A DNA stretch of 64,000 nucleotides from an uncultured Verrucomicrobiae bacterium (lineage in GTDB: Bacteria > Verrucomicrobiota > Verrucomicrobiia > Chthoniobacterales > UBA10450): the NCBI GenBank assembly GCA_963815455.1, contig CAWFGO010000003.1, positions 672,001-736,000 on the forward strand, given 5' to 3'. The translations under genes and the position numbers were made by a program. Positions within the stretch are counted from its first letter, which is position 1. Each line of letters starts with the position of its first letter. Below the pieces are notes generated by a model that was not told the origin of the DNA, ran no database searches, and saw only the letters and a program-made list of their open reading frames with translations. Below are positions 5,520-63,358 of the stretch, piece by piece.

Positions 5520-6853
5520 TCCATCATCGCGCCCAGCTCCTCGATAATCGCCCGGGCCGCTTTGTCGCTTGCACCACCTTGCCCGAGTTTGGCGATGACC
5601 GAGTCGAATTCAGCAATCATCTTTTCGCGAGCGCCCGCATCCTTCATGAGGCGCGACACAGTCTCGGCAATCGCGACCGGGCTTGCGCGATGTTGAATGA
5701 ATTCAGGCACGACTTCCTTGTTCGCGAGAACGTTCGGCATCCCGAGATGCTTCACGTTCACGACCATTCGCGCCGCGAGATAGGTCGGCCACGCGACTTT
5801 GTAAACGAGGACGAACGGCATCCGGAAATACGCGGCTTCGAGCGTTGCGCTTCCCGACGCTACGATCCCGACGAAAGCACGCTGCATGATTGCAGCAGTT
5901 TCACCGGTCGTGATTTGGAATAAGTGCTGCCCCGGGCGGAGCATCTCGTTCATTTCGGCGGCCAGTTCTTGCGACGCCGCGGCCACTTCAAAGCGCAATT
6001 GTGGTTTCGATCGCGCAAGCTCATTCGCCGCGGCGATCATGATCGGGAAAATCTTGCGGACTTCGCGTCGCCGGCTTCCCGGGAAAAGCCCGATCAGGTT
6101 CGGATCGCGTTCAATGTCGCCGGACCCGCCTGCGGCGGGCAGCACCTTCGCTTCACCCGCTGGCTCGGTTCGTATCGCAGTGTTTGAAGGGGCTGGGCGA
6201 TCCAGCTGGTTCTGCGAACCAGCTGCCCTTCGGGCGCGAAGCGGATCGATCTTCAAGCCACGCAACCGATCGATCATGGGATGACCGACAAATTCCGTGC
6301 GCAGGCCTGATTTATTGTAGAGCTCGGCCTCGAACGGGAAAATGCAGAGCATCAGATCGAGAAATTGCGCCATCTTCTCAATGCGTCCGCGGTTCCAGGC
6401 CCAGACCTGGGGGCTGATGTAGTAAATGATTTTTTGTTGGGGCGATTTTTCCCGGAGAGTGCGGGCAAGGCGCAAATTGAATCCCGGATAATCGATCAGC
6501 ACAACGGCGTCGGGCTTGGCTTTCTCAATTTCGCCGAGCGTTTCGTGGAATTGCTTTCGGAAATAACCGTATTTCTTGATCACTTCCCACAAGCCAAGAA
6601 CAGCCGCCTCACCCAACCAATCGGTGAAATTCGCCCCGGCGATCGCCCGCATCTGCGGACCACCTCGGCCGAAGAAATTAAGTCCGCCTTTGGACGGACT
6701 CGCCGTGGCGAGATCGACATCGCGCTTGCGCAGCGAAGACATCAACGCTGCGCCGTGATTATCGCCGCTCGCTTCGCCAGCGACGAAGTAGAGTGATTTC
6801 GCTTTCGGAGGGACGTGCTTTCGCACGTCCTCGCTTGTGTGATCATTCACCAT
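5510..6853 (-). CDS. lpxB: Lipid-A-disaccharide synthase carrying in-frame repeat insertions
   Basis: AGEASGD, LIDYPGFN, YYISPQVWAW, IFPFE, VGHP, LFPGSR, ASGSATLE, VVPEFIQ motifs; likely start ATG at 6853. Confidence 0.95.
   Translation of the reverse strand: MVNDHTSEDVRKHVPPKAKSLYFVAGEASGDNHGAALMSSLRKRDVDLATASPSKGGLNFFGRGGPQMRAIAGANFTDWLGEAAVLGLWEVIKKYGYFRKQFHETLGEIEKAKPDAVVLIDYPGFNLRLARTLREKSPQQKIIYYISPQVWAWNRGRIEKMAQFLDLMLCIFPFEAELYNKSGLRTEFVGHPMIDRLRGLKIDPLRARRAAGSQNQLDRPAPSNTAIRTEPAGEAKVLPAAGGSGDIERDPNLIGLFPGSRRREVRKIFPIMIAAANELARSKPQLRFEVAAASQELAAEMNEMLRPGQHLFQITTGETAAIMQRAFVGIVASGSATLEAAYFRMPFVLVYKVAWPTYLAARMVVNVKHLGMPNVLANKEVVPEFIQHRASPVAIAETVSRLMKDAGAREKMIAEFDSVIAKLGQGGASDKAARAIIEELGAMMENR
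6683..6712 (-). repeat. 30-nt double-hairpin coding insertion (copy in lpxB)
   Basis: ctcgccacggcgagtccgtccaaaggcgga on the coding strand; 26/30 identical to 46309-46338 in infB; encodes LATASPSKGG. Confidence 0.8.
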
Positions 6854-7333
6854 CGCAACACAGTTAACTCTCCCTGGTACGGCCAATCATCTGCGTTCGC
6901 GACGAGCCCGTGGCGAACGGGATTATTCCGAACATATTCCCATTTGTCGCCGTAACTTTCACCTGAGCGAAGCTGCCGATCCCAGTGATGGCGTTGCCAT
7001 ATCTCGCCCTTGATTTTGTCCATACTGCGCGTGGCGTTAGATTTCCAAAAACGCATCCAGCGTTCCAGGGATGACGGATTCGGATCGTTTGGCGCACAAA
7101 AAAAATGAATATGATCCGGCATAATCACATATCGACCAACGAGCCATTTGGACGCATTTTGCCAGGCGTTGATAATCGCTTGGTGAGCCGAATCCGACGC
7201 GAGGAGTTTGCGGCGATCATTAGTGCAAGTCGTTACAAAAACGATGATCGGTCGGTTATGTGCTTCAAGAGGGGCGAGATGAATCGGATGTTTCCGCTCA
7301 GGAAGAGGCGGACGTGCGGAAGCACGTCCCTCC
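6807..7333. repeat. Pair of inverted GGAG-type REPs (6807-6830 and 7310-7333) flanking a RAYT
   Basis: ggag-ggacgtgc-tttc-gcacgtcc and its reverse-orientation copy ggacgtgc-ggaa-gcacgtcc-ctcc. Confidence 0.85.
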
Positions 7334-7356
7334 GCTGATCTAGACCATTCGCTCAT
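6847..7356 (-). mobile_element. REP-associated tyrosine transposase (RAYT, Y1 HUH)
   Basis: FVTTCT, YVIMPDHIHF (HUH), IWQRHHWDRQLR, YVRNNPVRHGLV...WPY motifs; likely start ATG 7356. Confidence 0.9.
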
Positions 7357-7358
7357 GA

Positions 7359-8285
7359 TCACGAACGCGCATCGGTCGCGATTTTTTTCGTGATTTCCAC
7401 CGCCAGCTCCAGCGCAGCAGTTGCCTGAAAGCCTGAGACGCGCGGCTGACGCCCGGTGCTCGCGCATTCGATAAACGATGCGAGCTGTTGCTTAAGCGGT
7501 TCCTCGCGAGCGATCTGGACTTTGTCGCGCGTGATTCGTCCATCGACTCGCCGATAAATTTCGCCGCTCTGATTTTGATAATCGAGTGAGAGATAGGCGT
7601 CCTCCTGAAAAACGCGAATCTTGCGCATCCGCTCGGGACTGATCCGGCTCGATGTGACATTAGCCACGCAACCGTTCTCGAAACGAATCCGGGCATTGGC
7701 AATGTCTTCGCCTTTGCTCAACACCGGCACACCCACGGCGTCGATGCTCTGCACCGGCGACCGCACCAGATGCAAAATAATTTCGAGATCATGGATCATC
7801 AGATCGAGAACAACGCCGATATCGGTGCTCCGCTCCGGATAAGGCGAAAGCCGATGGGCTTCGATAAAGCGCGGATGAGTCAGACGCTGTTCGAGCGCGC
7901 TCAGGACCGGATTGAATCGCTCCACGTGACCCACCTGCAGGATGAGCCCCTTTCCCGCCGCCAGTTCCGCCAGCTCACTCGCATGGGCGGTGTTATCGGT
8001 GATCGGTTTCTCAATGAGCAGATGTATGCCGCGCTCCGAAAGCTTCTTCCCAATGTCGAAATGAGTATTCGTTGGTGTTGCGACAGATGCAGCGTCTATC
8101 ATTCCCGAAAATTCATCCAGCGAACCAGCCGCCTTGGCGCCGAACTTTTTCGCAATCGAATTGGCCCGCGCAAGATCGACATCATAAACCGCTGAGAACT
8201 CCGCCGACGGGATCTCCGAGTAAATCCGGGCATGATTGCTCCCGATATGGCCCACACCAATAACGCCAACACGCAAAGTCTTCAT
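7359..8285 (-). CDS. Gfo/Idh/MocA oxidoreductase (GnnA-like, lipid A operon context)
   Basis: GVIGVGHIG, LIEKP, VGHVERFNP, VVLDLMIHD motifs; upstream of lpxB. Confidence 0.88.
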   Translation of the reverse strand: MKTLRVGVIGVGHIGSNHARIYSEIPSAEFSAVYDVDLARANSIAKKFGAKAAGSLDEFSGMIDAASVATPTNTHFDIGKKLSERGIHLLIEKPITDNTAHASELAELAAGKGLILQVGHVERFNPVLSALEQRLTHPRFIEAHRLSPYPERSTDIGVVLDLMIHDLEIILHLVRSPVQSIDAVGVPVLSKGEDIANARIRFENGCVANVTSSRISPERMRKIRVFQEDAYLSLDYQNQSGEIYRRVDGRITRDKVQIAREEPLKQQLASFIECASTGRQPRVSGFQATAALELAVEITKKIATDARS

Positions 8286-8396
8286 CTCGTTTTGAACGAA
8301 ACGGAATTTCTTTGCTTAAAATTGAAAAATTCTGCTTCGGCGGTGCAACGATCCACACTAACTAGATAAAGTGGTTCAGTCACAAGTAGGAGCAAC

Positions 8397-9335
8397 TCAA
8401 CGCGGGCCATTTTTCAAAAACCAATCGTACGCGCAACTAATTCCATCACGAAGCGCAATTGTGGCGCGCCAGCCGAGTTTTGTCAGCTTGGTAACATCAA
8501 GAAGCTTCTGCGGTGTGCCGTCGGGCTTGGTCGTGTCCCAGGCGAGGTCGCCATCGAACCCGACGATTTCGCAAATTAGCTCGGCGAGCTCGCGGATCGA
8601 GATGTCTTCGCCGCAGCCGACGTTGATGATCTCGGGCGAATCGTATTTTTCGAGAAGGAAGAGGCAGGCCGAGGCGAGATCATCGACATGAAGAAATTCG
8701 CGACGCGGTTTTCCTGAGCCCCACACCACCAGCTCCCGCGCCTTATTTTTTTTCGCTTCGTGGGCCTTGCGCAGTAAGGCGGGCAACACGTGCGATGTCT
8801 CGAGATCGAAATTGTCGTTCGGGCCGTAAAGGTTTGTCGGCATCGCCGAGATGAAATTTGCGCCGTACTCACGAGCGTAAGCCTGACAGAGTTTGATTCC
8901 GGCGATCTTGGCGATGGCGTAGGCTTCGTTAGTCGGCTCGAGCGGGCCGGCGAGGAGTGCGCTCTCCGGGATCGGCTGGGGCGCGTGCTTGGGATAAATG
9001 CAGGAGCTGCCAAGAAACAGCAGTTTGCGCACGCCGTTTTCATGCGCGGCGCGAATGACGTTGTTTTGGATCGACAAGTTCTGAAGAAGAAATTCGACAG
9101 GATGATCGTTGTTCGCTTTGATCCCGCCGACTTTAGCCGCGGCGAGAATCACGACGACAGGTTTCTCTTCGCCGAGAAACTTCGCGACTACGGCTTCGTT
9201 CGTTAGATCGAGCTGGGACCGGTCGCGTTTGAGCAGGTTGGCAAAACCGTCCGCCTCGAGTCGCTGGACCAACGCGCTGCCGACCATTCCCTGATGGCCG
9301 GCTACGAAGATTTTATCGGATTTATTCATCGGCAT
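8397..9335 (-). CDS. fcl: GDP-L-fucose synthase
   Basis: AGHQGMVGSA, AAAKVGGI, LGSSCIYPK, YAIAK, NLYGPNDNF, REFLHVDD, KPDGTP. Confidence 0.96.
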   Translation of the reverse strand: MPMNKSDKIFVAGHQGMVGSALVQRLEADGFANLLKRDRSQLDLTNEAVVAKFLGEEKPVVVILAAAKVGGIKANNDHPVEFLLQNLSIQNNVIRAAHENGVRKLLFLGSSCIYPKHAPQPIPESALLAGPLEPTNEAYAIAKIAGIKLCQAYAREYGANFISAMPTNLYGPNDNFDLETSHVLPALLRKAHEAKKNKARELVVWGSGKPRREFLHVDDLASACLFLLEKYDSPEIINVGCGEDISIRELAELICEIVGFDGDLAWDTTKPDGTPQKLLDVTKLTKLGWRATIALRDGISCAYDWFLKNGPR

Positions 9336-50636: not shown

Positions 50637-50641
50637 GGAAA

Positions 50642-51254
50642 AATGACGAAGCTCGAATGACGAATGACGAAGGAATGACGAAATCGAAGGGCGTCATACG
50701 ATGATGAGTTCATTTTGGCTTGATGACGGGATGCCGCTTGTTCGTGAGGAATCTGACGCGAAACCTGTTTACGACTTGGAGGAGCGGACGGCGCGATTTG
50801 GTGAGGCGTAATCGATTTTGCAAAGACGATTCCGCAAGGACCGACCACCGGACCGAATCATCAGTCAACTGGTCGGTGCTGGAACAAGCGTGGGAGCGAA
50901 CTACGTCGAAGCCGACGATTCGGTGTCAAAGAAGGAATTTCTAAAGTGCATCGGCACGTGCAAGAAAGAGGCACGTGAGACGAAGCATTTCCTGCGCATG
51001 GCGGTTCGAGCTGTGCCAGAATTGAAATCTGAAGCACGAAAACTCTGGCTGGAGGCCAGGGAGTTGCACCTGATCTTCGCGAAGATCTGGAGGAGCGGGC
51101 AACAAGGGAAATGACGAATCTCGAATGACCAAGGAAGCCCAAATTCGAAGTCTGGTCTGGCCACGGTTAATCGGTTCCCTCTTGCTTCGGGCTTCGTCAT
51201 TATTTCGTCATTCGTCATTCGTCATTCGTCATTGGAAGGGCGTCATTCGTCATT
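50642..51254. repeat. GAATGAC heptamer arrays around the four-helix-bundle gene
   Basis: Direct arrays at 50642-50688 and 51109-51149; inverted (GTCATTC)n array at 51186-51254. Confidence 0.88.
50730..51114 (+). CDS. Four-helix-bundle protein (TIGR02436 / 23S rRNA IVS-like), frameshifted in read
   Basis: YDLEERTARFGE..IDFAK...QLVGAGTSVGANYVEA...SKKEF...KEARETKHFL...EARELHLIF across frames; start uncertain. Confidence 0.85.
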
Positions 51255-51260
51255 GTTTTG

Positions 51261-52251
51261 ATGGAAACGCTGCGATCCATCTCGGATCTATCGCACCTCT
51301 CCGGCCCTCTCTTCCTCGCCATCGGCGTTTTCGACGGCGTCCATCGCGGACATCAGGCGGTCATTTCCACTTCCGCGCGGCACGCCCAGGCAGAAAACGG
51401 AACGCCTGTTGTCGTGACCTTCGATCCTCACCCAATAAAAGTATTGCGTCCGCAGGACGCGCCGCATCTCCTTACCGCGACCCAGCACAAGATCGCTTTG
51501 ATCCGCGACCTCGGCGTGGGCCATCTCCTCATCATCACCTTCGATAAACAATTTGCCGCCACCGAGCCGGAAGATTTCGTGCAGCAACTCGTCGACGCAT
51601 TCAAATCCGCTTCGCGAAATTTGTGTCGGCCATGAATGGTCGTTTGGGAAAAATCGGCGCGGTAATCTCGATCTCCTCAAAAAACTCGGCGCGCGTTCCA
51701 ATTTCAACGTCGTAGGAATTCCGCCGGTCACGATCAATGGCGACATCGTAAGCAGCACGGCGATCCGGCAAGCGGTGGAAAGCGGCAATTTGGCGAAAGC
51801 AGCCGAGATGCTGGGCCGCGAATACACAATTCTCGGAACCGTCGTCCATGGCGATAATCTCGGACAAAAGATCGGGTTCCCCACGGCAAACCTGAGCGCA
51901 CACAGCGAGCAATTTCCGCCCAACGGGGTCTATTTTGCCGAAGCGACCCTGGATGGCGCGAAATATCCGGGCGTCATAAATCTCGGTTATCGGCCAACGA
52001 TCAGCAGCGATCAATCCGAGCGCGTTCTCGAGATTCACCTGCTGGATTTCAAGAGCGAAATTTACGGAAAAGACCTCGAAGTCCGCTTCCTCAAATATCT
52101 CCGACCGGAAAAGAAATTCGAAAACATCGACGCGCTCACCCGTCAGATCGATCTCGATGTTCAACAGGCACGTGAGCTCTACTCGTCGATCGCGGTCTCG
52201 TATCAGGAAAAGACTTCACCGAGTGTCGATAGTAGGCCCGGCCCCCCCTAG
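51261..52251 (+). CDS. ribF: Riboflavin kinase / FAD synthetase (frameshift at ~51595)
   Basis: IGVFDGVHRGHQ, TFDPHP, VSSTAIR, GFPTAN, EIHLLDF, LRPEKKF. Confidence 0.94.
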
Positions 52252-52284
52252 GTTACTGTCCGTCAATTCAATGCAACCCTAGCC

Positions 52285-52308
52285 TGACCCCTTTTCCTTT
52301 TCCTTTCC
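52285..52308 (+). repeat. Solo TGACCCC end motif with stuttered flank
   Basis: tgacccc followed by ttttcc-ttttcc-tttcc, at the boundary between ribF and the toxin/immunity array. Confidence 0.55.
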
Positions 52309-52337
52309 AAGATCGTCGAGCATTTCCTGTCATCTGT

Positions 52338-52982
52338 TCAAAAGAGATGCAGCCCTTGTTTCGATCTCTTTCGATTGTTTGGCCGCATCGAGGGAGGAAG
52401 ACTGCAATATGTTATTAGAAGATTTCCGAGCTCTAGGAGAGCGGCGGTTTTTTTCCCAACTTGCTTGGGCAACTCGGCTCCCGATTCCCGGCCGGTCGGG
52501 TCGATAACATAGAACTGCGCGCGCATACCTTCGAACATTATCTCGTCGGAATTCGCTTCGGGCCGCGCATCGCCTATCATTGCTGACCAAGTCTTCTCGA
52601 TTGCACGCGCTGCCGCAGCAGGCAACGAAGCTTCACACTTTTGAACTTTGATATGAGTCGGCACCTTCTTGTCCCGGGCAAAGGGCCAGAGCATTTGGGG
52701 TGGCTCGGCAATGGTCACGCAAAACTGGTTCCGCTTTGAATCGCACCGATGCACTGAGATGACTCTTTCGACACCCCAATAACCAGGTATTTGCACCATT
52801 CGTGCAATTTCGCCTCGCGCTACAAACAATTTACGTCGCACCAGCTTGTCATAACTTGTATCAATGCCGAAGGCAGAGCTGAATGGGACGAGATGATCGT
52901 CTGGGGTCATGCCGGGGCAGCAACTTGCGGCCGCGAAAATTAGACTGCCCACGATGCTCGAAACTAAATATTTCCTCGCCAT
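52338..52982 (-). CDS. Putative orphan immunity protein (exported), homologous to 56711-57347
   Basis: Signal-like N-terminus; AIEKTWSAMI...LLELGNLLITYC aligns by eye with AVQRAWASML...FTDLGFALADYC. Confidence 0.65.
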   Translation of the reverse strand: MARKYLVSSIVGSLIFAAASCCPGMTPDDHLVPFSSAFGIDTSYDKLVRRKLFVARGEIARMVQIPGYWGVERVISVHRCDSKRNQFCVTIAEPPQMLWPFARDKKVPTHIKVQKCEASLPAAAARAIEKTWSAMIGDARPEANSDEIMFEGMRAQFYVIDPTGRESGAELPKQVGKKTAALLELGNLLITYCSLPPSMRPNNRKRSKQGLHLF

Positions 52983-53155
52983 TTTGGCCTTCCTCCCATC
53001 ATGATGGGATTACTCTCTTAACACATCGCCCATCGCCCGAGTTTGGGTATATTTTCTTTTAAAGCCGATTTGGGCAACACGCCCTATAGATGCGGCCCCA
53101 GCTTCCCCCCAGGCCTGAACTCAGTCCCCCAGCCTGAACTCAGTAATTCCTTAGA

Positions 53156-53647
53156 TCATTGGGATTTTGACAGAATCTCCTTCTTTAGGAATTCTAAACG
53201 TGTGTGGAGGTTTTCGGCATTTTCCAAGCTAGGGGGAACATTGACCGGTATCAGCTGATCGACTGAACGTCCTGCTCTGGCCGCTTCAACCCACTCGCGC
53301 ATCGCCCCAATATAGGCATCTAGAGCGCAAGCCGCGTTTGGAGCATTTTCGGTGGTAATGTAAGCAGGTGGTAAATCTCCCACGATTACCCAAAGCCATT
53401 CGTCTACGTCGCTACGCGAGGGGACGATATGGAATAGAAAAACCCCGACCACACCGCCAACTCCAAGGCCCAGAAAGGACTCACGTATGCCGCGATTCCA
53501 GGCAAACGAAGAAAGAAAAGCTTTCGCCTCAGCTAGCATTCCACGTAACAGCACCGAGTCCTCTTGGTCTTCACCCTGCATTAGATTGGCGGAAGTGAGC
53601 TTTGAGAATTCAATAGCTTCTCTCCTCTTACTACGGTTTGGTTCCAT
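53156..53647 (-). CDS. DUF4826-like protein (possible immunity cassette)
   Basis: WLWVIVGDLPPAY motif; start ATG 53647 (the upstream ORF extension is translated repeat). Confidence 0.65.
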   Translation of the reverse strand: MEPNRSKRREAIEFSKLTSANLMQGEDQEDSVLLRGMLAEAKAFLSSFAWNRGIRESFLGLGVGGVVGVFLFHIVPSRSDVDEWLWVIVGDLPPAYITTENAPNAACALDAYIGAMREWVEAARAGRSVDQLIPVNVPPSLENAENLHTRLEFLKKEILSKSQ

Positions 53648-53653
53648 AAATTC

Positions 53654-54879
53654 GGGGGAAAGGAAAGGGGAAAGGGGAAAGGGGGTCAGAAAGGGGGTCA
53701 GAAAGGGGGTCATGTCTTTATTCTTGTCGGGGAAAGGGGAAAGGGGGTCAGAAAGGGGAAAGGGGGTCATGTCTTTATTCTTGTCGTGCTCGGGCTTCGA
53801 TCTCTTTCAGATGCTTGGAAAGTTGCGCTTGGTTAGCCAGGTCATCAATCCGGCTGCACAGCCGACTGACATGGCTGTCGTTTCCCATTGCCAACTGCTC
53901 TCCTATCCAGCGTAGTGAAACCCCGGTCCGGTTCTTGATTAAGTGACCAATCGCGCGCTTGCGCCAATCGCTCTTTTTAAGTTTGGGCAGGTCTCTCTTC
54001 TCCAGGTTCCACTGCTTCAACCCAGCTCTGAGTAAACGCTCAGCGCTCCATGCCCCGTGATCGCCCCAAGTCTCCACCGGCCCCGATTTTCGCAGCCCGG
54101 CATCGCTCAATCGATCCATTAGCCTCAGCGCCCGATCTCGAAATTGCTCGCCGCCCAAAATCCAGCCCCGCCGCAATTCACCCGGCAATGGACCGAGGCT
54201 GCGGCCCGGCGGGTTTTCTTTGGCGCGCTCTTGCAGCCGCTTTACGTATTGTCGCCGGTGGGAGCCGCGATCACTCCAGCCCAGCTCACCTAAGACCGTT
54301 TTCACTTCCAACCAATTCGGCCGGTTACGAGCCCCCGGCCCGTACCAGTTGAAACTGCTCCAGCGATAGCTGCTTAAAGGTCTCTTGCTCGTCAAATGCG
54401 CCCGGGCCGGATTGAGATGAATGTAGTCCGACACCGTTGCCAGGTAGCCCCGCTCTTCGGGATCGATCAGCAGCGATTTATAACGTCCGGCAAAGAGATG
54501 TCCGCTCAAACGATGCCGGCGATTGTAGCGGGCCGTGTAGGTGGCTTGAAACCAATGCATCCCACGCACCAGATTGGCTTTCGGGGTCTCTACCAGCAGG
54601 TGGTAATGATTGCTCATCAAGACATAGGCGTGCACTCGCCAGCCAGTGCGCTGACAAATCTCGCCCAGTGTAGCCAGGAACATTTCCCGATCCCTGTCAT
54701 CGAGGAAGATCGCTTCCCGCCGATCGCCCCGGCAAAGCAGGTGATAAAGCGCCCCCTCAAATTCTATCCGCGGCATTCTGGCCATCGAACAACCATTAGC
54801 TGATTATCCCACAATGACAAGAATAAAGACATGACCCCTATTTTACTTATTTTACTATTTGACCCCTATTTTACTATTT
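53654..54879 (-). mobile_element. Y1 HUH transposase element with 23-bp inverted ends and stuttered flanks
   Basis: ggggtcatgtctttattcttgtc at 53706-53728 and 53763-53785; its exact reverse complement at 54816-54838; partial end duplications outside both ends. Confidence 0.85.
53775..54785 (-). CDS. Y1 HUH transposase (RAYT-like) with C-terminal HTH
   Basis: YHLLCRG, YVLMSNHYHLL (HUH), GHLFAGRYKS, YIHLNP, YRWSS; C-terminal SLRWIGEQL..VSR. Confidence 0.9.
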   Translation of the reverse strand: MARMPRIEFEGALYHLLCRGDRREAIFLDDRDREMFLATLGEICQRTGWRVHAYVLMSNHYHLLVETPKANLVRGMHWFQATYTARYNRRHRLSGHLFAGRYKSLLIDPEERGYLATVSDYIHLNPARAHLTSKRPLSSYRWSSFNWYGPGARNRPNWLEVKTVLGELGWSDRGSHRRQYVKRLQERAKENPPGRSLGPLPGELRRGWILGGEQFRDRALRLMDRLSDAGLRKSGPVETWGDHGAWSAERLLRAGLKQWNLEKRDLPKLKKSDWRKRAIGHLIKNRTGVSLRWIGEQLAMGNDSHVSRLCSRIDDLANQAQLSKHLKEIEARARQE

Positions 54880-54885
54880 CGAGCT

Positions 54886-55302
54886 TCACCGAGATCTAGA
54901 CCGCGCACGAACAGCATCGGGTCTTCGCTCATGAAGCGGCCGATAGTCGGATGATAGGCACGGGCGCGATATTCGTGAGAACCCGAACTGTGGCGCATAC
55001 TCGCGGCCGGTGAAGAGGAAGCGATTATTAATCAGTGACGAGGGATGAGTGATGTGGGACGAGTCGTAAATTGTGGGCGTTCCAAATGCGTCATACCGAT
55101 ATGATTCGAGGATTGTTCCATCGCCGCCAGTGACCACGATCACGCTGCCCTCGTGGTCCTGCATCGGGTATTGGCCAGACCCGTTGTTGCTCCGGGCGAT
55201 GATCTCATCGATCCCGCGCCCGTACACATTGGTCGAGGGCGTGCCGCCGCTGGGATCGAACTCGTAGATCGGACGTTCCCCGTCGTAGATGTAATAGGTC
55301 AA
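54886..55302 (-). pseudogene. Orphan RHS core fragment truncated before its toxin tip
   Basis: TYYIYDGERP...QDHEGSV...YRYDAFG...NRFLFTGREY; stops after EDPMLFVR at the transposase end. Confidence 0.8.
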
Positions 55303-55341
55303 GAGGTGATGACTGACACAATTTGAATTAGCTTTTCGCCC

Positions 55342-55668
55342 TCATTCGTCAGTTCTCCATTTCGACCGACTTATTCTGTGAGTATCGATAAAACCATCTA
55401 TCTTGCCTGAACAACGGTTCACGTGCACGCTGTAAACGGGGATTGCCTCACGCCGGTGCGGATCATTATACGACACTGCATACAAGGGAACCTTCGGCCC
55501 GGATTCAGGAACGAAAGTATCTTTGATGACTCGAATCGTGTAGTCCCGCGGCAGGGTGATTTTTCGTCGATTGATCTCGGCATTGGCTATGCCAATTACC
55601 TGTTCGTTGCTCAGGTACGTGCAGCAGCCAGAGAGAAAAAACGCGCACATCAGAAGCAGTGGTTTCAT
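55342..55668 (-). CDS. Putative lipoprotein immunity protein for the HEXXH toxin
   Basis: Lipobox FLSGC; start overlaps the stop of the upstream toxin module. Confidence 0.7.
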   Translation of the reverse strand: MKPLLLMCAFFLSGCCTYLSNEQVIGIANAEINRRKITLPRDYTIRVIKDTFVPESGPKVPLYAVSYNDPHRREAIPVYSVHVNRCSGKIDGFIDTHRISRSKWRTDE

Positions 55669-56730
55669 CAGTGTCCAGCGTCCCAGCGATTGATGGGAAC
55701 ACCCTTGTAAGATTTGCGATCCTCTAGCTTTAAACCTCGCCTCACAGGATTTTCATTATCGCGCACATTATGACCTCGGTATTCATTTTCGTCTCTTCCT
55801 CCCGCAAAGTGGCCAACCTCGTGAAACACGGTTGTCGCACGCCCTTTGACTCCATCGGGCGGCAATTCTGTCGGATGGTGGTTAAAATCTGCTCGGCTCT
55901 TTGGATCAAGAAAAGCGGGGTCATGGGGATCAAGCCGGAGAATTTTTTCCTTAGGATAGAATCCGGTCGGATGTGTCTTGTCGGTGGCCGCAACTCTCAA
56001 ATCTCCTGGCATATTAGCTAATTCGTTGCCTCGTTTGCTCGTCGACGAACCAAGTTTTATCGCTTCATTAAACTTCGCTTGCGCGGCTGCGCCAAACGAT
56101 TCATCAAAGAAAAATTCAATCAGCCCTAATGGATCAAATCTATCAAGCGGATCGTTAGAGCAGTATCGAAACAGGTTTAGCTCGCCTTGATCAGGAGACT
56201 TCCAGAATGACCATTCCTCTTTCGATTTGCCGCCTTCGGGAGCCTTGGCGTCGGACGAATCTGCGACCGGCTTATCGAGGCCGATCCGCCGCACAAACAG
56301 ATTCGGATCTTCGCTCATGAAGCGGCCAATCGTCGGATGATAAGCCCTCGCGCGGGACCCGTAGAAGCCGAACTGCGGCGTGTACTCGCGGCCAGTGAAG
56401 AGGAAGCGATTGTTGATCGCAGTGGTTGATAGTTGATTGTTCGACGGATCGCGAATGGTCGGCGCGCCGAAGGCGTCGTAGCGGTACCATTCCAGGATAG
56501 AGCCGTCGCCGCCGGTGACCACGATCACGCTGCCTTCATGGTCCTGCATGAAATACTGACCCGAGCCGTTATTGCTGCGATAGAGAATCTCATCGATCCC
56601 GCGCCCGTAAACATTGATCGAAGGCGTGCCGCCGTTCGGATCAAACTCGTAGATCGGCCGTTCCCCGTCGTAGATGTAATAGATCACCGAACTGGCGCCG
56701 GTGGTTCGCTTCACGCACCGGCCCTGATCG
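55668..56730 (-). CDS. Orphan RHS core + HEXXH (M91-like) metallopeptidase toxin tip
   Basis: RHS core from GRCVKRT to DPLGL; tip contains FHEVGH...NENPVRRGLKLEDRKSY; no convincing start codon. Confidence 0.8.
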
Positions 56731-57347
56731 CGAAATCTTCTAGCCAGCGCATGAGCTTTTTCCGCTTCTCGGGTCTTTCGGCCTCCGGAGTCTGGCAATA
56801 ATCTGCAAGCGCAAATCCCAAATCTGTAAACTCTTTCGGCAATCCTTTTGTTGGACTCCATATTTGACCGTAAACGCCACCCAAGCCGGTAATCCAAACG
56901 GAAAATTCAACATTCCAGCCATCTCCGCCCTAACTTATTTTGTGGATACCGCGTCTTGAGAAGCATACTTGCCCAAGCGCGCTGAACCGCCACTGCAAAA
57001 TCTGCGTCGATAGGGACGTTAACCTGGCTTTCAGAAATAGGACCGCGCTTGCCACGAGATATCTTAATAAGCGTGATGAAATTGTCTATCGACCGCTCGT
57101 GATCATAGTTCTTGTAACCTTTTCCCCAGACCGAAACCGCGAGATCACCGACTGCCGAACCGTTGCAAATCATATGACCCTTGCCCCATTTATTTCCCAG
57201 TAGTCTCTGCACGGCTGCTTCATATTCACGTCCGTCCGGCGACACTGGAATGAGATATCTCGGTTCCGTCTGATGTTTTTTCAATTGTATCGGTTCCACC
57301 GCAATCACCGATGACGTGAAGAAAACAAGAATGAAAAATCGCTTCAT
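56711..57347 (-). CDS. Cognate immunity protein of the full-length RHS (frameshift at ~56930)
   Basis: Signal peptide; a frameshift after YPQNKL continues GGDGWNVEFSVW...DLGFALADYC...RAGA* to 56711. Confidence 0.7.
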
Positions 57348-57368
57348 TAGTGATTCCCAAGTGCCGAC

Positions 57369-60300
57369 TTACTTTCGTTGTAGGCCCGGCAGCTTAACAG
57401 CCGGTCTTTTCTCGACTTCTTCCCACTTTCCATTCTTTAACCTTTCGGTGACTGAATCCGCGTGATGATCACGCTGTCGCGCGTCATCAGACTGTCGATA
57501 GCGCTCCGTAATTTTTCCATCTTTTGAAGTCGTGTAAACTGTGGTGTTGGATTTATCCCCATTGTTCTTGTCTGGGGGGCTTGTCAGCGTGCCCCTCGGG
57601 TCCGGTCGCCCTTGTGGGTCGGTTGTGTTGCTATTGGTGTGAACGTGGGCAAATGAGTCCCTCTTGCCGTTTTCGCCGCCGGGAGGATCCGGATACAATA
57701 TCCTTTGGTGAGTCATGTCCCCGTTAACGGGCTCACCGACGCTCGTATCCTTCGAATATTGAATGCGACCATTAAGCGGCCCGATCGTCTTGCCGCGCTC
57801 CAAGCCAACGCCTTTTCCGTCGCTATTATTATTGCTAATATCTCGGACGACTTTGAGGGCTTCGAGTGAAACACGATCCACTTCTGGACTCACCACAGTT
57901 GGAGCCAGCCCCATGGGATCGCTAAGGTCCCACGGATCGTTTTTGACGTACCGATAGAGATTGTAATCGTCCGCATCGAAGAGTTTAGGGTCCTCAGACA
58001 TGAACCGCCCGATGCCGGGATGATAGGCGCGGGCGCGGTATTCATAGAAGCCGAAGAGTGGAATGTATTCCCTGCCGGTGAAGAGAAAGCGATTATTGAT
58101 CTGTGTCGTCGGGAATGAAGTTCCGGCACCGTCCTTGATCGACATCGGCGCGCCGAAGGCATCGTAGCGGTACCATTCCAAGAGCGCGCCGTTGCCCCCC
58201 AGAACGGCAATCACACTTCCCTCGTGGTCCTGCATGAAATGCTGACCCGAGCCGTGATTGCTGCGATAGAGAATTTCATCGATACCGCGCCCGTAAATAT
58301 TCGTCGAAGGTGTGCCGCCGTTTGGATCGAACTCATAGATTGGTTTCTCGCCATCATAAATGTAATACGTGACCGACATTCCCGGCCCATCTCCCCAGGT
58401 GCGCCGCACCAACCGGCCCAGTGCATCGTAGCCCAGCCGGTAGAGATGCAGCCCGCTGGCGTCGGTCATCGACACGCGCGCCAGCCGCGTGTCGTTTAGA
58501 TAAACGTAATTCACACCCTGATAAGCGCTGATCTCGTGATTCGCCCCGTTCTGGATCGACGTGTCCCCGTGAGCGATCGTGTATTGATTCAGGCCATTCG
58601 GCTCGTAATTGAACGGCTCGCCGTCTGCCGTCACGCCCGCTTCGCCGGTCCGATTGCCCGCTTTATCGAGCGCGTAATTCAGACTGCGCCTGGTTGCGGA
58701 CTGCGGCGCTTGGCCACCGCCTTCATTGCTGTACGTTTCCTCAGCAATCGTCGAATCAGCCATGCCGGTTTTGTAAGCAATCGCTCGCACCGTCTTCTCT
58801 CCATTCAGCGGCACTCCCACATTGAAACTCCCACCGGATGAAATCAACATCCCATTGGTGCTGCTGGGAATAGTTCCGTTGGTCGTATAACGGATCGACG
58901 CGCCAGCGGTCGAACAGGTGACGGTGACCGATTGCGAAACCCCGTAGAGATTACACCCCGGGGGATTGAGCACCGGAGTGGCTACTTGATTTCCCGGTGG
59001 CGGCGTGGGCGTGGCGCTCGGCGTTGGCGTCGGGCTCGATACCGGCAACGCGTATTCCGCGCGCTGGAGTTCGCCATCGAGATAATAGCCAAACCAATCG
59101 ATCGCCGCCGTGTCTTCATCGCGGTTAACCGAACTCAGCCGGTTCATCATATCGTAACCGTACACTTCGCGCGTAAACCAATTCCGCGTCGTAGGGGTGC
59201 CGTAGGGCATCGGCATCGCGCTGGGAAGGTTGACTTTCAGCGCCCCGATGCGATTCAGCGCATCCGGCTCGTAGTCGATCCAAGTCCCGTTTGCGAAACT
59301 GTCGCGCCTGGTAACATTTGAGGCTTCATCGTACCCGTATTGATATGAAGGACTCTGGCCACCCGTCGGCAAGATCGTCTTGAGCCGGCCCAAACTGTCG
59401 TAAGTCTGGGTGTAATCGTATCCGACTCCGGGAACCCAAAGATGCCTTACTCGGCCGTCATTATCGTGTTCGTAAGACACGGCTTGCGTTGTGCTTGGAG
59501 GCGGGGAAGCAATGCCTGTTCCTGCGTTCACCGTTGCCACTTTGTTGTCGGCATTATCAATATCTCCAGTGACATTTGCATCGCACCGGAAGTTGCTTGA
59601 GCTAACGGGCTGACCGATCTGCGACTGAATCATGCTGGCATCGCTCGAAGTAACCGAGCCGGTGGCGTTCGCGTCGCCCCATAAAACTCGCATCGGAATT
59701 GCGATCTCGTCAGAAATTCCACCATCACTGACCGAGAGCATCACGACAAGCTTCTGCGCCGTGCTTACGTTCACCAGATCGATAGTGATGGCCGTTCCGC
59801 CCGTTTCTGTAGACGCAGATGTGGTGGCGCTAACAGTGCCGATTCCGGCCGATACGATGGCATTACCGTTGAGGTTCACCAGGTGCTGGAAAGTAGCGAC
59901 GATCTTATAAGTCCCGCCGTTTCGGCTTTCAATTCCCGGGTCTCCCGTTAGTGGCAACGCAATGTCAAAATCACCTGCGCTCCCGTGCGTCCGCCGAGAG
60001 ACGACACTCGGTCGGTCAATCAACGGAACCGGAGTGGGCGCGGCACCGGGCATCGTCTGCTGATCCAGCGTCATCCGTCCGGCATCGTCGTAGCCCCGCA
60101 CGACAGTTGAGTATGGATTCTGAGCAAAAGTCAGCCGCCCGGCCCAATCGTAATCAAAATCGCTGAAATCAATTCCGTTGCTCCAGCGCATCGCGGTCTT
60201 CCGGTTGCGCGAGTCGTAGGCGAACGTCTGGATCGCGCCGCCGGGCGCGCGCCGGGCGATCAGGTTCTTATTGCCATCGTAGGTCCAGGTCTGGGTATCG

Positions 60301-63110
60301 CGGGTTCCTCCCGGTAGAGGCGGTGGATAGGTCATCGTTTCCTTTAACCCTGACGGCTCGTAGGTGAAGTCTGTCTCATTTCCATTCCCGTCTCTGACCT
60401 TCGAGAGCAGGCTCGCGCCGTGAACGCCAGCGGAATGATAGAAAAACTGGGTGATCACATAATCGCTGTCCGGCCCTTCCCCGAGCATCGGCACTTTGTC
60501 CATGGTGATTCGATTCAGCCCATCATAAGTCTTGAACGCGGTGGTGCCGTCCGGGCGAATGATGCGGGTTAGATTCAGCCCGTCCTCATAAAAAAACTGC
60601 GTCCGGTGATTGAGCGGCTCACGGACTTCCGTTTTTCGGTTTCGACTGTCGTAATCCGTTTCGGTCACCCAATGCGAGGGACGTGGATCGATCACTCTGG
60701 TCTGATTGCCAACGGCATCGTAAGCGAAGCTGGTTATCGAAGTGTCGGACCCACTGCCGACAGTTGTGGACAATTTACGGAAGTCGCCATCGTAGTTGTT
60801 TGTAGTGATAATGCTCTGCTCCTTCGCGACGTGCTGGCGGACAGAGTTGGTTGTGTGCGAGTACGAATTATTCTGGCTGGTCGGATCGCCGGTCGTCGGC
60901 TTGTAATCGAACGTTTCGAAATGCCCGAGCGGGTCTGTGATTTTGGTCACCCGGCCATAATCGTCATACTCATATCTCGTTCGCTGGCGTAGCTCATTTT
61001 CCTCCCAAATTTTATCCCCGTAAATATTGAACCCGAACGATTGATATCTGCCGTCGGGATGGGTGATCTTGGTCACCAGCCCGCGCCCGGGGCAAGGCTG
61101 ACCAGTATTTGGCCCTTCCACCGCAATGTCGTACTCATACGTCGTCGTGTTCTGGCGCGGATCGGTTTCCGTCTTGACCCTGTCGATCCACGCATTGCCG
61201 GCAATCGGATCATTCGGCTCGTAATAGCTGTAGGTCGTTTTCGGCTCCGACTCGACCGGCGCTGAACTCCAAGTCGGGTTCCATTTCTTGATTAGCAGGC
61301 CGCGCGAATCGTATTGATAATGCACATAAGCGCCGTTCTTCATCCGGTGCCAACTGACTTGGCCGTGGCCGTTCCCGTCGTCGTAACCGACTTCCTCATA
61401 AGCTAGCAACGTGCTGCCATTAGCCGCCGAATCCTTGTAGTCGGTGCGTGTTATTCGGTGCAGGCCGTCACGCGTGTGCTCTGTTACGCTGCCGCGTTCA
61501 TCGGTGACACGATGCACATAGTGCGGATCGCTTTCGTAATCGTAGTGAATCGTCTTCCCATCGGGATGAATGATGTCGGTGATTTCACCGATCCCCTCGG
61601 TCGCATTGGGTCCCCACGCATGACGCATATAGCGTGTGGTGTAGAGGGGATCACCAAGCCCGCTGCTAGTGCGAGCATCGGTAACGCGATTCACGAAGTT
61701 TTGAGAGTCGTAATCCAGGTAAGTCGTGTGCCCCTCGAAATCCTCGTACGATAACAAGAGCTGTGGGTCGTCGCAGCCGCCGCAGGGCTCGTCTGGCGCG
61801 CAAGGTGGCAGCCGAGTGTACTGAAATGTTCGGGTCAGACTTACCCGCGTTGTCTCCTCCCGAGAGTCCCAGTTCCCGGCAACGCTGGAGATGATGGTAT
61901 TTCCGTCAAAGGTTTCCTCCCGTTTTATCACTCCATGTGGAACACTCGAGACCACTCCATTATGTGGATTCCTGATCGTTCCGCTCTGATACCCGTACTG
62001 GATTCGTCGCATGGCCCCGCCTTGATGCCGCATGTCGTCGGCAGTCTTAAGAAGTGGCCATTCTCTTGGATTTGCTTGGCCGTTGACCCACTCCGCGATG
62101 TTGTCTTCCCGATAAGTGTAGATAGCCGACGTGCCATCGCTGTAATGCACTTCGCTTAGCATCATCTTTTCGCGGCATCCGAAAATGCATCCCCCGCCTG
62201 GATAGATCGGGCAATACTGATAGGTAACATTGTCGATTCGGTTCCCGCGGCCATCAAAAGCCTCCACTTTGATGAGCAAGCGTGGATTCCAATAATCAGT
62301 GCTCCATGGGTTATCGACGTACGTAAATAGCAGAAACCGGCCCCCGGGTTCAGTGACTTTCCAAACTTTGCCATAGTTATCATAGTCGATTGTTGTGGTT
62401 TTTCCGAAAGGATCGGCAATAGCAACTGCACGATGACTGGCCGAATCAAAAATGACTGTCCCACCGTCGGCCATGCGAAAATGAGTAGCGTCCTCCCACT
62501 TTTCTGAAGTCCCTCGATCCCAGCCGCACGTGCCGAGCTCGGCACCGCTGGGCATGAAAACAATACCTGAAAAGTCTGGCCGAGGCGCTTCGCCAAGCCA
62601 CATGTACTCATGAGTCCAACCTGGACAGATGCGAGGCGACCCGTCCTCGGGCGTGGTTCGGCTGTTCCAGTAGCGAGTCATTTTAAGAGGATATGCGCCG
62701 ATGCAGCCCGGCACGACAATGTCGTCGATCACGCGCTTGGCATTCCTGGAAAGAGGGTCGTAATTCCCCCCAGTGGTGATCTGCCCGTTGAAAATTCCGG
62801 CCACACCGGTGGGACTGTTCTGGCCAAAAGCAAGTTGGGGCGACCCTCCATCAGCAGGCGCTTCTTCCATGGGACCCTCCGGCTCCTCGGGTGCTTCTGT
62901 GCAGTTAGTCGCTACGACCTCTTCTTGCGCAAACATCCGCGGCGCAGGCATTGCAACCACGAGCGACCCAACCAGTGCGCTCAGCCAGAGCACTCGGGCA
63001 AGATTTTTCGTGCTGAAGTTAACACTCGCCGCGGCGAGCCCGATGCGGAGGCTTCGCGATATTGGAATCACGGAAGTGCATCTTAAGGCAACGGATAACA
63101 GATATGGCAA
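57369..63110 (-). CDS. RHS/YD-repeat polymorphic toxin with internal dockerin and FN3-like inserts and a JAB/DUF4329-like tip
   Basis: Many YD repeats; RHS core FTGREY...RARAYHP..GRFMSEDP...DPMGL; tip E...HVHT...SPPD; hydrophobic N-terminal leader. Confidence 0.92.
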   Translation of the reverse strand: MPYLLSVALRCTSVIPISRSLRIGLAAASVNFSTKNLARVLWLSALVGSLVVAMPAPRMFAQEEVVATNCTEAPEEPEGPMEEAPADGGSPQLAFGQNSPTGVAGIFNGQITTGGNYDPLSRNAKRVIDDIVVPGCIGAYPLKMTRYWNSRTTPEDGSPRICPGWTHEYMWLGEAPRPDFSGIVFMPSGAELGTCGWDRGTSEKWEDATHFRMADGGTVIFDSASHRAVAIADPFGKTTTIDYDNYGKVWKVTEPGGRFLLFTYVDNPWSTDYWNPRLLIKVEAFDGRGNRIDNVTYQYCPIYPGGGCIFGCREKMMLSEVHYSDGTSAIYTYREDNIAEWVNGQANPREWPLLKTADDMRHQGGAMRRIQYGYQSGTIRNPHNGVVSSVPHGVIKREETFDGNTIISSVAGNWDSREETTRVSLTRTFQYTRLPPCAPDEPCGGCDDPQLLLSYEDFEGHTTYLDYDSQNFVNRVTDARTSSGLGDPLYTTRYMRHAWGPNATEGIGEITDIIHPDGKTIHYDYESDPHYVHRVTDERGSVTEHTRDGLHRITRTDYKDSAANGSTLLAYEEVGYDDGNGHGQVSWHRMKNGAYVHYQYDSRGLLIKKWNPTWSSAPVESEPKTTYSYYEPNDPIAGNAWIDRVKTETDPRQNTTTYEYDIAVEGPNTGQPCPGRGLVTKITHPDGRYQSFGFNIYGDKIWEENELRQRTRYEYDDYGRVTKITDPLGHFETFDYKPTTGDPTSQNNSYSHTTNSVRQHVAKEQSIITTNNYDGDFRKLSTTVGSGSDTSITSFAYDAVGNQTRVIDPRPSHWVTETDYDSRNRKTEVREPLNHRTQFFYEDGLNLTRIIRPDGTTAFKTYDGLNRITMDKVPMLGEGPDSDYVITQFFYHSAGVHGASLLSKVRDGNGNETDFTYEPSGLKETMTYPPPLPGGTRDTQTWTYDGNKNLIARRAPGGAIQTFAYDSRNRKTAMRWSNGIDFSDFDYDWAGRLTFAQNPYSTVVRGYDDAGRMTLDQQTMPGAAPTPVPLIDRPSVVSRRTHGSAGDFDIALPLTGDPGIESRNGGTYKIVATFQHLVNLNGNAIVSAGIGTVSATTSASTETGGTAITIDLVNVSTAQKLVVMLSVSDGGISDEIAIPMRVLWGDANATGSVTSSDASMIQSQIGQPVSSSNFRCDANVTGDIDNADNKVATVNAGTGIASPPPSTTQAVSYEHDNDGRVRHLWVPGVGYDYTQTYDSLGRLKTILPTGGQSPSYQYGYDEASNVTRRDSFANGTWIDYEPDALNRIGALKVNLPSAMPMPYGTPTTRNWFTREVYGYDMMNRLSSVNRDEDTAAIDWFGYYLDGELQRAEYALPVSSPTPTPSATPTPPPGNQVATPVLNPPGCNLYGVSQSVTVTCSTAGASIRYTTNGTIPSSTNGMLISSGGSFNVGVPLNGEKTVRAIAYKTGMADSTIAEETYSNEGGGQAPQSATRRSLNYALDKAGNRTGEAGVTADGEPFNYEPNGLNQYTIAHGDTSIQNGANHEISAYQGVNYVYLNDTRLARVSMTDASGLHLYRLGYDALGRLVRRTWGDGPGMSVTYYIYDGEKPIYEFDPNGGTPSTNIYGRGIDEILYRSNHGSGQHFMQDHEGSVIAVLGGNGALLEWYRYDAFGAPMSIKDGAGTSFPTTQINNRFLFTGREYIPLFGFYEYRARAYHPGIGRFMSEDPKLFDADDYNLYRYVKNDPWDLSDPMGLAPTVVSPEVDRVSLEALKVVRDISNNNSDGKGVGLERGKTIGPLNGRIQYSKDTSVGEPVNGDMTHQRILYPDPPGGENGKRDSFAHVHTNSNTTDPQGRPDPRGTLTSPPDKNNGDKSNTTVYTTSKDGKITERYRQSDDARQRDHHADSVTERLKNGKWEEVEKRPAVKLPGLQRK

Positions 63111-63358
63111 GCATTTTCTTGAAACTCCCCTCGGATATTTCTTTAATTCCTGTTGTTTCTCATAACATCTGGAATTTCAATTTCCACAAACATGTCCTGC
63201 CTACGGCGGCTTTGCATCGCAACAAGCGCCCCCGGTTAGCGGCACCTATCGGCCACGATTTGATTTTGGAGCAAATTCGGCACGTTCCCCCGGGCAAAGA
63301 TAGGCTTTGCCACTTGGAGAATTCTTCATAGAGTCGTGCGCTTCATCCCCACGCGTTT

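Follow-up and report, generated by a model that had tools for sequence, protein, structure and literature searches.

What marks the ends of the orphan toxin/immunity modules that follow an RHS gene, and does the transposase gene that sits among them have a part in moving them? The question is raised by an array on the minus strand of a 64,000-nt stretch of DNA (the window; contig CAWFGO010000003.1, positions 672,001 to 736,000) from the 3.6-Mb genome of an uncultured Chthoniobacterales bacterium, which we call G000; G001 is a genome of the same genus, and L numbers denote the loci compared. In minus-strand order the array holds a 1913-residue RHS gene, an immunity-like gene, an orphan core-tip-immunity module, a cut RHS core, a Y1 HUH transposase gene and two single genes. 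An earlier examination of the letters alone (the sequence-only reading) had noticed four short related motifs behind modules of this array, had recognized the same motif at the tips of the inverted ends of the Y1 gene, and had proposed an integron-like system with an HUH recombinase. We find that the element is a TIRtron, i.e., a TIRYT gene between terminal inverted repeats (TIRs) of the GGGGTCR type, that the other motifs in the array are relic TIRs of sister elements, and that TIR ends sit directly behind RHS immunity genes in G000 and many of its relatives, with enrichment for both position and strand. On balance, and with considerable reserve, we favor the view that TIRYT makes the non-homologous joint when RHS modules move, with RHS homology often making the other end.

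The TIRYT gene (53775-54785, minus strand) encodes a 336-residue protein with a match to Y1_Tnp (PF01797, E 1e-12), and its H60-x-H62 pair and Y121 are invariant across 46 homologs. The closest named relatives come from the Chthoniobacterales and other Verrucomicrobiota. A structure model built from the alignment (pLDDT 90) has TnpA-REP (4ER8) as its closest solved fold (Z 16.1), and its C-terminal residues 246-336 match DnaA domain IV (Z 11.6, rmsd 2.6, 90 aligned), a domain for which the Bac_DnaA_C profile is positive in 7 of the 46 homologs and negative in the window enzyme itself. The perfect 23-bp inverted ends reported earlier, with the tip GGGGTCA, are indeed present. The right TIR (53763-53785) has a full duplicate at 53706-53728 and extra tips at 53682, 53694 and 53744, the whole group occupying 53682-53785 on the plus strand; the left TIR (54816-54838, minus) has its tip 54 nt upstream of the start codon, with an inner hexamer that would lie at the place of a -35 box. 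Beyond it, a duplicated tip (54860-54866, minus) is joined by a purine-rich linker to the cut RHS core. The TIRs of relatives are 23-24 bp long and consist of the tip GGGGTCR, 10-11 nt, and a TTGACA-like inner end, and in most of these elements the left tip lies 53-57 nt before the start codon together with this hexamer, which makes the left TIR a possible portable promoter. The TIR consensus GGGG[AT][CG]A[CG] is recovered, base 8 being T in the window and G in 76% of relatives, and longer TIR families cluster in G000. On the three features tested, the element belongs to TIRYT. Membership of the IS200/IS605 TnpA group is ruled out by the length of 336 residues, the presence of TIRs instead of hairpins and the lack of a tnpB-sized neighbor (profile NF033573 gives 22.6 bits against a cut-off of 55). 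RAYT/REPtron membership is likewise ruled out, since the flanks are TIRs that fold weakly (mean -1.2 kcal/mol) rather than hairpins of GTAG-tagged repetitive extragenic palindromes (REPs), and the RAYT profile NF047646 stays below its cut-off (58.8 against 80 bits). A separate observation is that the inner ends of 106 TIRs resemble the DnaA box beyond shuffled sequences (39 against ~13 within two mismatches), which fits binding there by the DnaA-IV-like domain.

How far the association with toxin/immunity modules extends was gauged in two sets of loci from 151 genomes of the family, 51 of them with TIRYT and 69 with an RHS core (tallies that include the unpublished G008, G141 and G161). The first set comprises 60 TIRYT regions, the higher-scoring ones, and leaves aside the unpublished genomes and ~13 weak or contig-edge loci; the second comprises 60 loci chosen on RHS alone from 150 listed ones (45 further being unlisted), skipping contig-edge loci and those of the TIRYT set. 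When the neighbors of the TIRYT homologs were tabulated, as had been suggested earlier, an RHS core was found within 3.1 kb at 23 of the 60 loci, and the nearest pair was co-oriented in all 23 (L078 holds also a farther, inverted copy). A general strand bias of TIRYT is ruled out, as the upstream gene at non-RHS loci is on the same strand in 16 cases, on the opposite strand in 14 and absent in 7. Of the 51 RHS-chosen loci with enough flank, 20 show a forward TIR by strict criteria no more than 2.5 kb from the last core, with a peak at 1.0-1.5 kb. With a TIR model trained on other loci, forward TIRs were detected at 29 of 61 immunity ends in the RHS-selected loci of relatives and reverse TIRs at none, as compared with 0/244 control gene ends and 19/3506 called gene ends of G000. 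A recount in a narrower window gave 28 sites in 17 of 34 genomes, with 26 different TIR middles and a median distance of 43 nt from the stop codon; 21 of the 28 have no partner TIR within 1.4 kb, i.e., they are solo TIRs. The link between an HUH element and toxin/immunity module boundaries that was first noticed in the window is thus strongly supported far beyond it. The short 7-mer does not by itself serve as a boundary signal (236 occurrences against 205 expected); it is the full TIRs that are enriched, and what had been taken for short guide motifs of the HUH enzyme are the known TIRs of TIRYT.

Comparisons between genomes suggest that modules bounded in this way have moved. Since ribF and hppA are only ~94 nt apart in G001, the 11.1-kb array between both genes in the window is an island (52173-63295 is missing from G001), and its downstream end falls near a degenerate TIR (52223-52246, minus), the inner end of which is ~50 nt from the point in ribF where homology to the empty-site genome resumes. 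All eight of the G000 RHS islands compared with G001 are missing there (the RHS loci L007, L009 and L010, in which no clear TIR is apparent, stand outside this comparison), and six of the eight end within 190 nt of a TIR relic; the remaining two end at an IS3 scar alone (L004) and 0.9 kb past a TIR (L001). At the upstream end, a TIR was found in none of the seven islands examined, which rules out a composite transposon in which a matching TIR would precede the RHS gene. Two of the eight are solitary modules of 1.7 and 2.5 kb without a full RHS gene, and one solitary module (L008, G000:C1, island 6335-8859) lies between ~50-nt direct repeats of chromosomal flank, as after integration of a circle. 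In G021, one 2.8-kb unit made up of RHS core, toxin, immunity gene, TIR tips and TIRYT is present at two loci (L078 and L109, 96.8% identical), with its left end in RHS core homology, its right end inside the right TIR, and no DDE element within it. The orthologous loci L166 and L172 share the RHS gene (88%) and the downstream flank and differ in toxin and immunity gene, the left break lying just after the core end and the right one beside TIR relics in both, those of L166 being weak. In the orthologous L206, L208 and L210, right breakpoints lie away from TIRs in two of the three. The sequence-only reading had opposed breakpoints in RHS homology to breakpoints at the motifs; both occur, one end in RHS homology and the other at TIRs.

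Closer inspection of the window's own motifs, all four of which are present where they had been placed, changed the identity of one of them: three are TIRs or TIR tips, and the second is only part of a duplicated linker. The first is a tip behind a purine-rich linker (52282-52291, minus, tip 52291), 46 nt after the stop of the 214-residue gene, and is a genuine TIR tip split at base 10 by the end scar of an IS3-family insertion sequence (IS) (52249-52281, minus), the same end that precedes intact IS3 orfA/orfB at L004, L013 and L020; a 34-nt long motif seen behind immunity genes is therefore not a single element, being a TIR tip plus an IS3 end. At the second site, GGGGGACTGAG sits in the duplicated linker (53113-53144), has no relatives in the genome as a TIR, and gives way to a degenerate tip 30 nt away (53085-53099, minus), 56 nt after the stop of the 163-residue gene, which matches the TIR family of L088 and L122. 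It is followed by a scar (53045-53084, minus, lower bound approximate) where the end of an IS1182-type DDE element splits the TIR at base 15; the same element end recurs at nine other sites in six loci, mostly just inside TIRs, and the copy in L101 carries DUF772 and DDE_Tnp_1_6. The third is the element's own left TIR plus the duplicated tip. The fourth (55298-55320, minus), 21 nt after the stop of the lipoprotein-like gene, is a degenerate TIR that matches a TIR family of relatives, and RHS homology starts at its inner end. The cut RHS fragment (54886-55302, minus) therefore has a TIR on either side, as had been described, and this frameshifted fragment ends ~25 codons short of the core end, without a toxin tip; the junction at 56711/56730 lacks a TIR, also as described. 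Three of the four non-toxin genes of the window are followed by a related site, and four TIR types are present in this one array, only one of which matches the resident enzyme.

Three DDE families (IS3, IS1182-type and IS4-type) have entered TIRYT TIRs in the window and in L004, L013, L020, L079, L100 and L101, at about base 10 for IS3 and about base 15 for the IS1182 type. IS1397 offers a parallel for insertion into REPs. REPs are known as IS targets (PMC3733652). It could be such DDE elements that make the joints, by adjacent deletion or cointegration, with the TIRs merely attracting them. The downstream TIRs of the window and of L002, L003, L005 and L006 do contain IS3 end scars, L004 ends at such a scar alone, and IS1182-type ends lie in the TIRs of six other loci; we nonetheless regard this explanation as highly improbable, because most TIRs behind immunity genes bear no IS scar, the IS lies on the inner side of the TIR and the module joint at its tip, and the duplicated G021 unit is without a DDE element.

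The anatomy of the junctions gives some indication of how the ends may be made. Orphan RHS segments start beside a TIR in 25 of 86 cases, as compared with 34 of 2867 random positions, a lower bound, as frameshifted main genes are counted among the 86 and degenerate sites such as 55320 escape detection, and these starts fall at many different RHS positions. One type of start consists of an inverted TIR tip and a 10-25-nt linker; others begin at the inner end of a forward TIR, after the first ~23 codons of the TIRYT gene, or without a TIR. No target duplication is present in 44 of 53 elements. The two outer flanks share a few terminal bases (1.8, against 0.7 by permutation), a 13-nt purine-rich zone outside the tips resembles a degenerate tip, and the flanks joined to identical element ends differ from case to case, in some instances beyond 4-12 shared bases. 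Since no CC peak is seen outside the tips, a cut site at CC chosen by a guide can be dismissed. These junctions would appear to fit ends that were joined singly, near the tip and not exactly at it. According to PMC8266576, TnpA-REP performs strand transfer and cleaves single-stranded DNA at short sites that may lie to the left or right of its repeat, at a distance that varies, which would fit the variable joints outside the TIR. Among side observations, L098, L205 and L262, from unrelated genomes, have fusions in which ~23-28 codons of the TIRYT gene lead into RHS core DNA, and miniature inverted-repeat transposable elements in L106, L185 and L190 break in the same region. A second hairpin repeat of ~30 nt occurs after immunity genes or just inside TIRs (L155, L169, L170, L184, L194, L198, L202, L204, L209, L210, L071 and L073).

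The data show the family membership, the enrichment by position and strand, the boundaries of the islands, one duplicated unit and the lack of target duplication; the role of TIRYT as maker of the joints, its cut site, a circular intermediate and any host benefit we infer, along the following lines. By the chemistry of HUH enzymes, TIRYT would cut single-stranded DNA a few bases outside the TIR tip, and the cut end would be joined to other DNA, one end at a time. A module would consist of part of an RHS core, a toxin tip, an immunity gene and a TIR, with or without the TIRYT gene; a TIR placed behind an RHS immunity gene would therefore be a non-homologous handle for the module, which could be excised or captured there. 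For the other module end, either recombination within the RHS core, which is conserved, or another imprecise joint would serve. Repeated rounds, along with the insertion of further TIRtrons and DDE elements into old TIRs, could build arrays such as that of the window. The data suggest that TIRYT helps bacteria to gain and exchange toxin-immunity modules.

TIRYT is also found among ordinary genes, like a simple IS, so that the concern that it might move only as a simple IS with no link to toxin/immunity genes is borne out at most by half. Its neighbors at non-RHS loci are housekeeping, defense or toxin-antitoxin genes (82 proteins scanned, a selection of the neighbors), and 20 metagenome stretches with the window's exact TIR, mostly short contigs, have the same ends, different flanks and no RHS match. 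In a tree of 46 proteins the RHS-linked enzymes are scattered (11 changes), which indicates that the link arose or was lost many times, and an RHS-dedicated TIRYT clade is ruled out by at least 10 changes that well-supported branches force. In G000 itself, five loci (L011, L012, L013, L017 and L020) have TIRs beside toxin-antitoxin pairs (DUF433/PIN, MazF, VapBC, HigB) and also beside IrrE/Beta-protein and type I restriction genes, and the island of L012 extends 150 nt beyond the last of its TIRs.

The distribution bears on another explanation, in which TIRtrons would be no more than mobile elements with a preference for purine-rich sites and old TIRs. RHS arrays would tolerate them, their decay would leave solo TIRs and they would delete DNA locally, while RHS homology alone would account for the exchange of toxin and immunity genes. 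The scatter over the tree and the TIRs beside toxin-antitoxin and restriction genes would be expected under such a hotspot of insertion, as would the many different flanks of the same element end, the tip-like purine-rich zone and the nesting of different TIR types in one another; the window's cut RHS fragment and the transposase-RHS fusions look like damage. We consider this account credible, though rather less than probable. Taken alone, it leaves unexplained the 29 forward against 0 reverse TIRs, the co-orientation in 23 of 23 pairs with no such bias elsewhere, the mostly solo TIRs directly after stop codons, their presence at downstream and not upstream (0/7) island ends, and the duplicated G021 unit ending in a TIR. 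Several findings do weigh against our preference for TIRYT as the maker of the non-homologous joint. No RHS core accompanies 37 of the 60 TIRYT loci, many of which have housekeeping neighbors; 61 of the 86 orphan RHS segments start, and 32 of the 61 immunity ends lie, without a detectable TIR, as do two junctions of the window itself; and the immunity-end and locus counts overstate independence because the genomes are related. Among the islands, the ends of L004 and L001 have no adjoining TIR, the relic of L005 and L006 is mostly IS3 scar with a weak tip, and all ends are fixed only to 100-200 nt because G001 is ~78% identical. The IS3, IS1182-type and IS4-type elements in many of the same TIRs could make some of the joints. 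Outside the family, the TIRYT-RHS link is weaker: it is absent in G317, and a same-strand pair within 5 kb was found in 4 of 26 genomes of the phylum listed with both genes and in 2 of 21 genomes listed with both genes in the phylum of a Desulfuromonadales genome.

The proposal of a true HUH integron, in which the TIR tips are recombination sites, each cassette consists of one or more genes plus a TIR, and TIR-by-TIR strand exchange yields an ordered array, fares less well, and we think it quite improbable. In the window and at L012, L083 and L088, successive genes are indeed followed by directly oriented TIRs, some modules between tips consist of a single gene, one of which was not found in 300 other genomes of the family, and the TTGACA-like hexamer of the left TIR 53-57 nt before the start is a possible portable promoter. 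There is, however, no fixed integrase-attI platform or enzyme position and no clade dedicated to RHS; the window array mixes four TIR types; junctions truncate RHS at many positions and often break genes; the TIRs are weak hairpins; no cassette was found twice, in different contexts, with identical sequence and exact TIR-to-TIR ends; and 37 of the 60 TIRYT copies are away from RHS. A broader version, to which we give somewhat more credence and which we still hold to be unlikely, would have TIRYT enzymes act as the recombinases in a new system of gene capture, integron-like and based on the single-strand chemistry of HUH enzymes, with TIR tips as both end and target and each TIR bringing a -35 box, in which polymorphic toxin, immunity, toxin-antitoxin and defense genes are gathered as cassettes across several phyla; GTAG REPs and RAYTs might do the same in other arrays.

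Among described systems, the element is closest to TIRYT/TIRtron (PMC3733652, Di Nocera 2013) and to TnpA-Y1 subclass 2.1 (PMC6006769, Quentin 2018), sharing in the accessible text of both the Y1 HUH core, the C-terminal DnaA-type helix-turn-helix, TIRs of GGGGWSAS consensus, and the occurrence of TIRs both dispersed as solo copies and in clusters. Subclass 2.1 is the second largest TnpA-Y1 group, with 14.9% of strains, according to the same part of PMC6006769. The term 'rhs' is absent from the main text of the two papers, which contains no neighborhood pattern, mechanism or cargo of this kind, and the accessible parts of the works that name TIRYT among the literature searched give no role for it. 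A link between TIRYT and Rhs toxin/immunity modules was not found in that literature, which stops short of subscription papers and the supplements of both TIRYT papers, and a 2026 Stenotrophomonas Rhs preprint has no occurrence of 'transposase'. The TIRYT family is thus known, if biochemically uncharacterized, and the new part is its link to toxin/immunity module ends.

The enzyme shares its closest solved fold (4ER8, Z 16.1) with TnpA-REP/RAYT and their REPs and bacterial interspersed mosaic elements (accessible part of PMC8266576). Unlike RAYTs, it has TIRs in place of GTAG hairpins and an extra DnaA-IV domain, and the gene itself moves. In mode of action, we lean toward the view that TIRYT would work most like an IS26 translocatable unit coupled to RHS homology, without being a member, as it is an HUH enzyme and not a DDE enzyme of the IS6 family. 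IS26 depends on a DDE enzyme that acts on double strands. The likeness lies in the unit, cargo plus one element copy, and in the way new copies land beside old ones and build direct-repeat arrays (accessible parts of PMC4196232 and PMC4894685). For TIRYT, cargo plus one element copy at a second site is known from one case, the G021 pair; in contrast to IS26 the enzyme is HUH, the cargo is a toxin/immunity module, and cargo homology often supplies one end. Integrons and rAID-1 of Bacteroidales are similar in their co-oriented low-GC immunity genes with a linked recombinase gene and, in part, in their repeated intergenic sites, which here follow 29 of 61 immunity ends, are of mixed types and have variable junctions; rAID, as described in bioRxiv 10.1101/471110, has a tyrosine recombinase of the XerD type that always sits at the 5' end and is confined to this setting, whereas TIRYT is an unrelated HUH enzyme that occurs anywhere in the array and elsewhere. 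Membership of the integron/rAID group is ruled out by the HUH enzyme, its variable position and the lack of a dedicated clade. The usual model of RHS C-terminal displacement relies on homology, and its weak step is the non-homologous 3' joint of a foreign toxin tip and immunity gene. The window resembles that model in its full RHS gene followed by orphan core-tip-immunity modules, with one breakpoint in the core, and differs from it in that the other breakpoint is non-homologous and is marked by the end of a defined mobile element. Now that both an enzyme and a 23-bp site can be named, this joint becomes testable in vitro and by strain comparison, and TIRs provide a simple marker for finding immunity and defense genes.

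Beyond the family, 20 further loci (partly picked for known co-location) have a tip-like motif, by a loose pattern, at 7 of 40 immunity ends and none in reverse, and L262, a locus of another phylum chosen on its RHS array alone, shows the full layout again. GTAG-tagged REP-like hairpins stand behind several immunity genes of the RHS arrays L262 and L268 (phylum of G318), and the L262 array also holds a short Y1-like gene; REP/RAYT may mark modules in those arrays as TIRs do here.

The remaining genes of the window array, all on the minus strand, bear the roles that their positions suggest. The full-length RHS/YD-repeat gene (57369-63110, by family profile matches) has internal dockerin-like and Fn3-like inserts, and its dockerin-bearing region has dozens of paralogs in G000. 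The 146-residue gene next to it (56907-57347), with no TIR behind, is by position the putative immunity gene of the main RHS protein. The orphan core and toxin tip (55668-56730, TIGR03696) start without a TIR, and the 108-residue lipoprotein-like gene that follows (55342-55668), without a family match, is by position its putative immunity gene. Neither the main nor the orphan toxin tip has a family match; the latter contains an HExxH motif, which we take to suggest a metallo-enzyme. The single-gene module between TIR tips (53156-53647, 163 residues) has 336 homologs, none of them found in the 300 other genomes of the family; it had been called DUF4826-like and has no Pfam match, and the Atlas clusters with DUF4826 in 14-25% of members give that name the value of a lead only. 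For the last, 214-residue gene (52338-52982), which has no Pfam or NCBIfam match, an immunity-like role is putative: it alone among these genes has a homolog (29% identical) directly behind another RHS toxin tip, at G000:C3:221101. Next to the array, ribF (51258-52251) can be read in two frames, a possible frameshift or sequencing error, with its current stop inside the TIR relic, and between truB and ribF lies a four-helix-bundle gene of the 23S rRNA IVP family (50637-51250), with several paralogs in G000, which is flanked by inverted arrays of short repeats.

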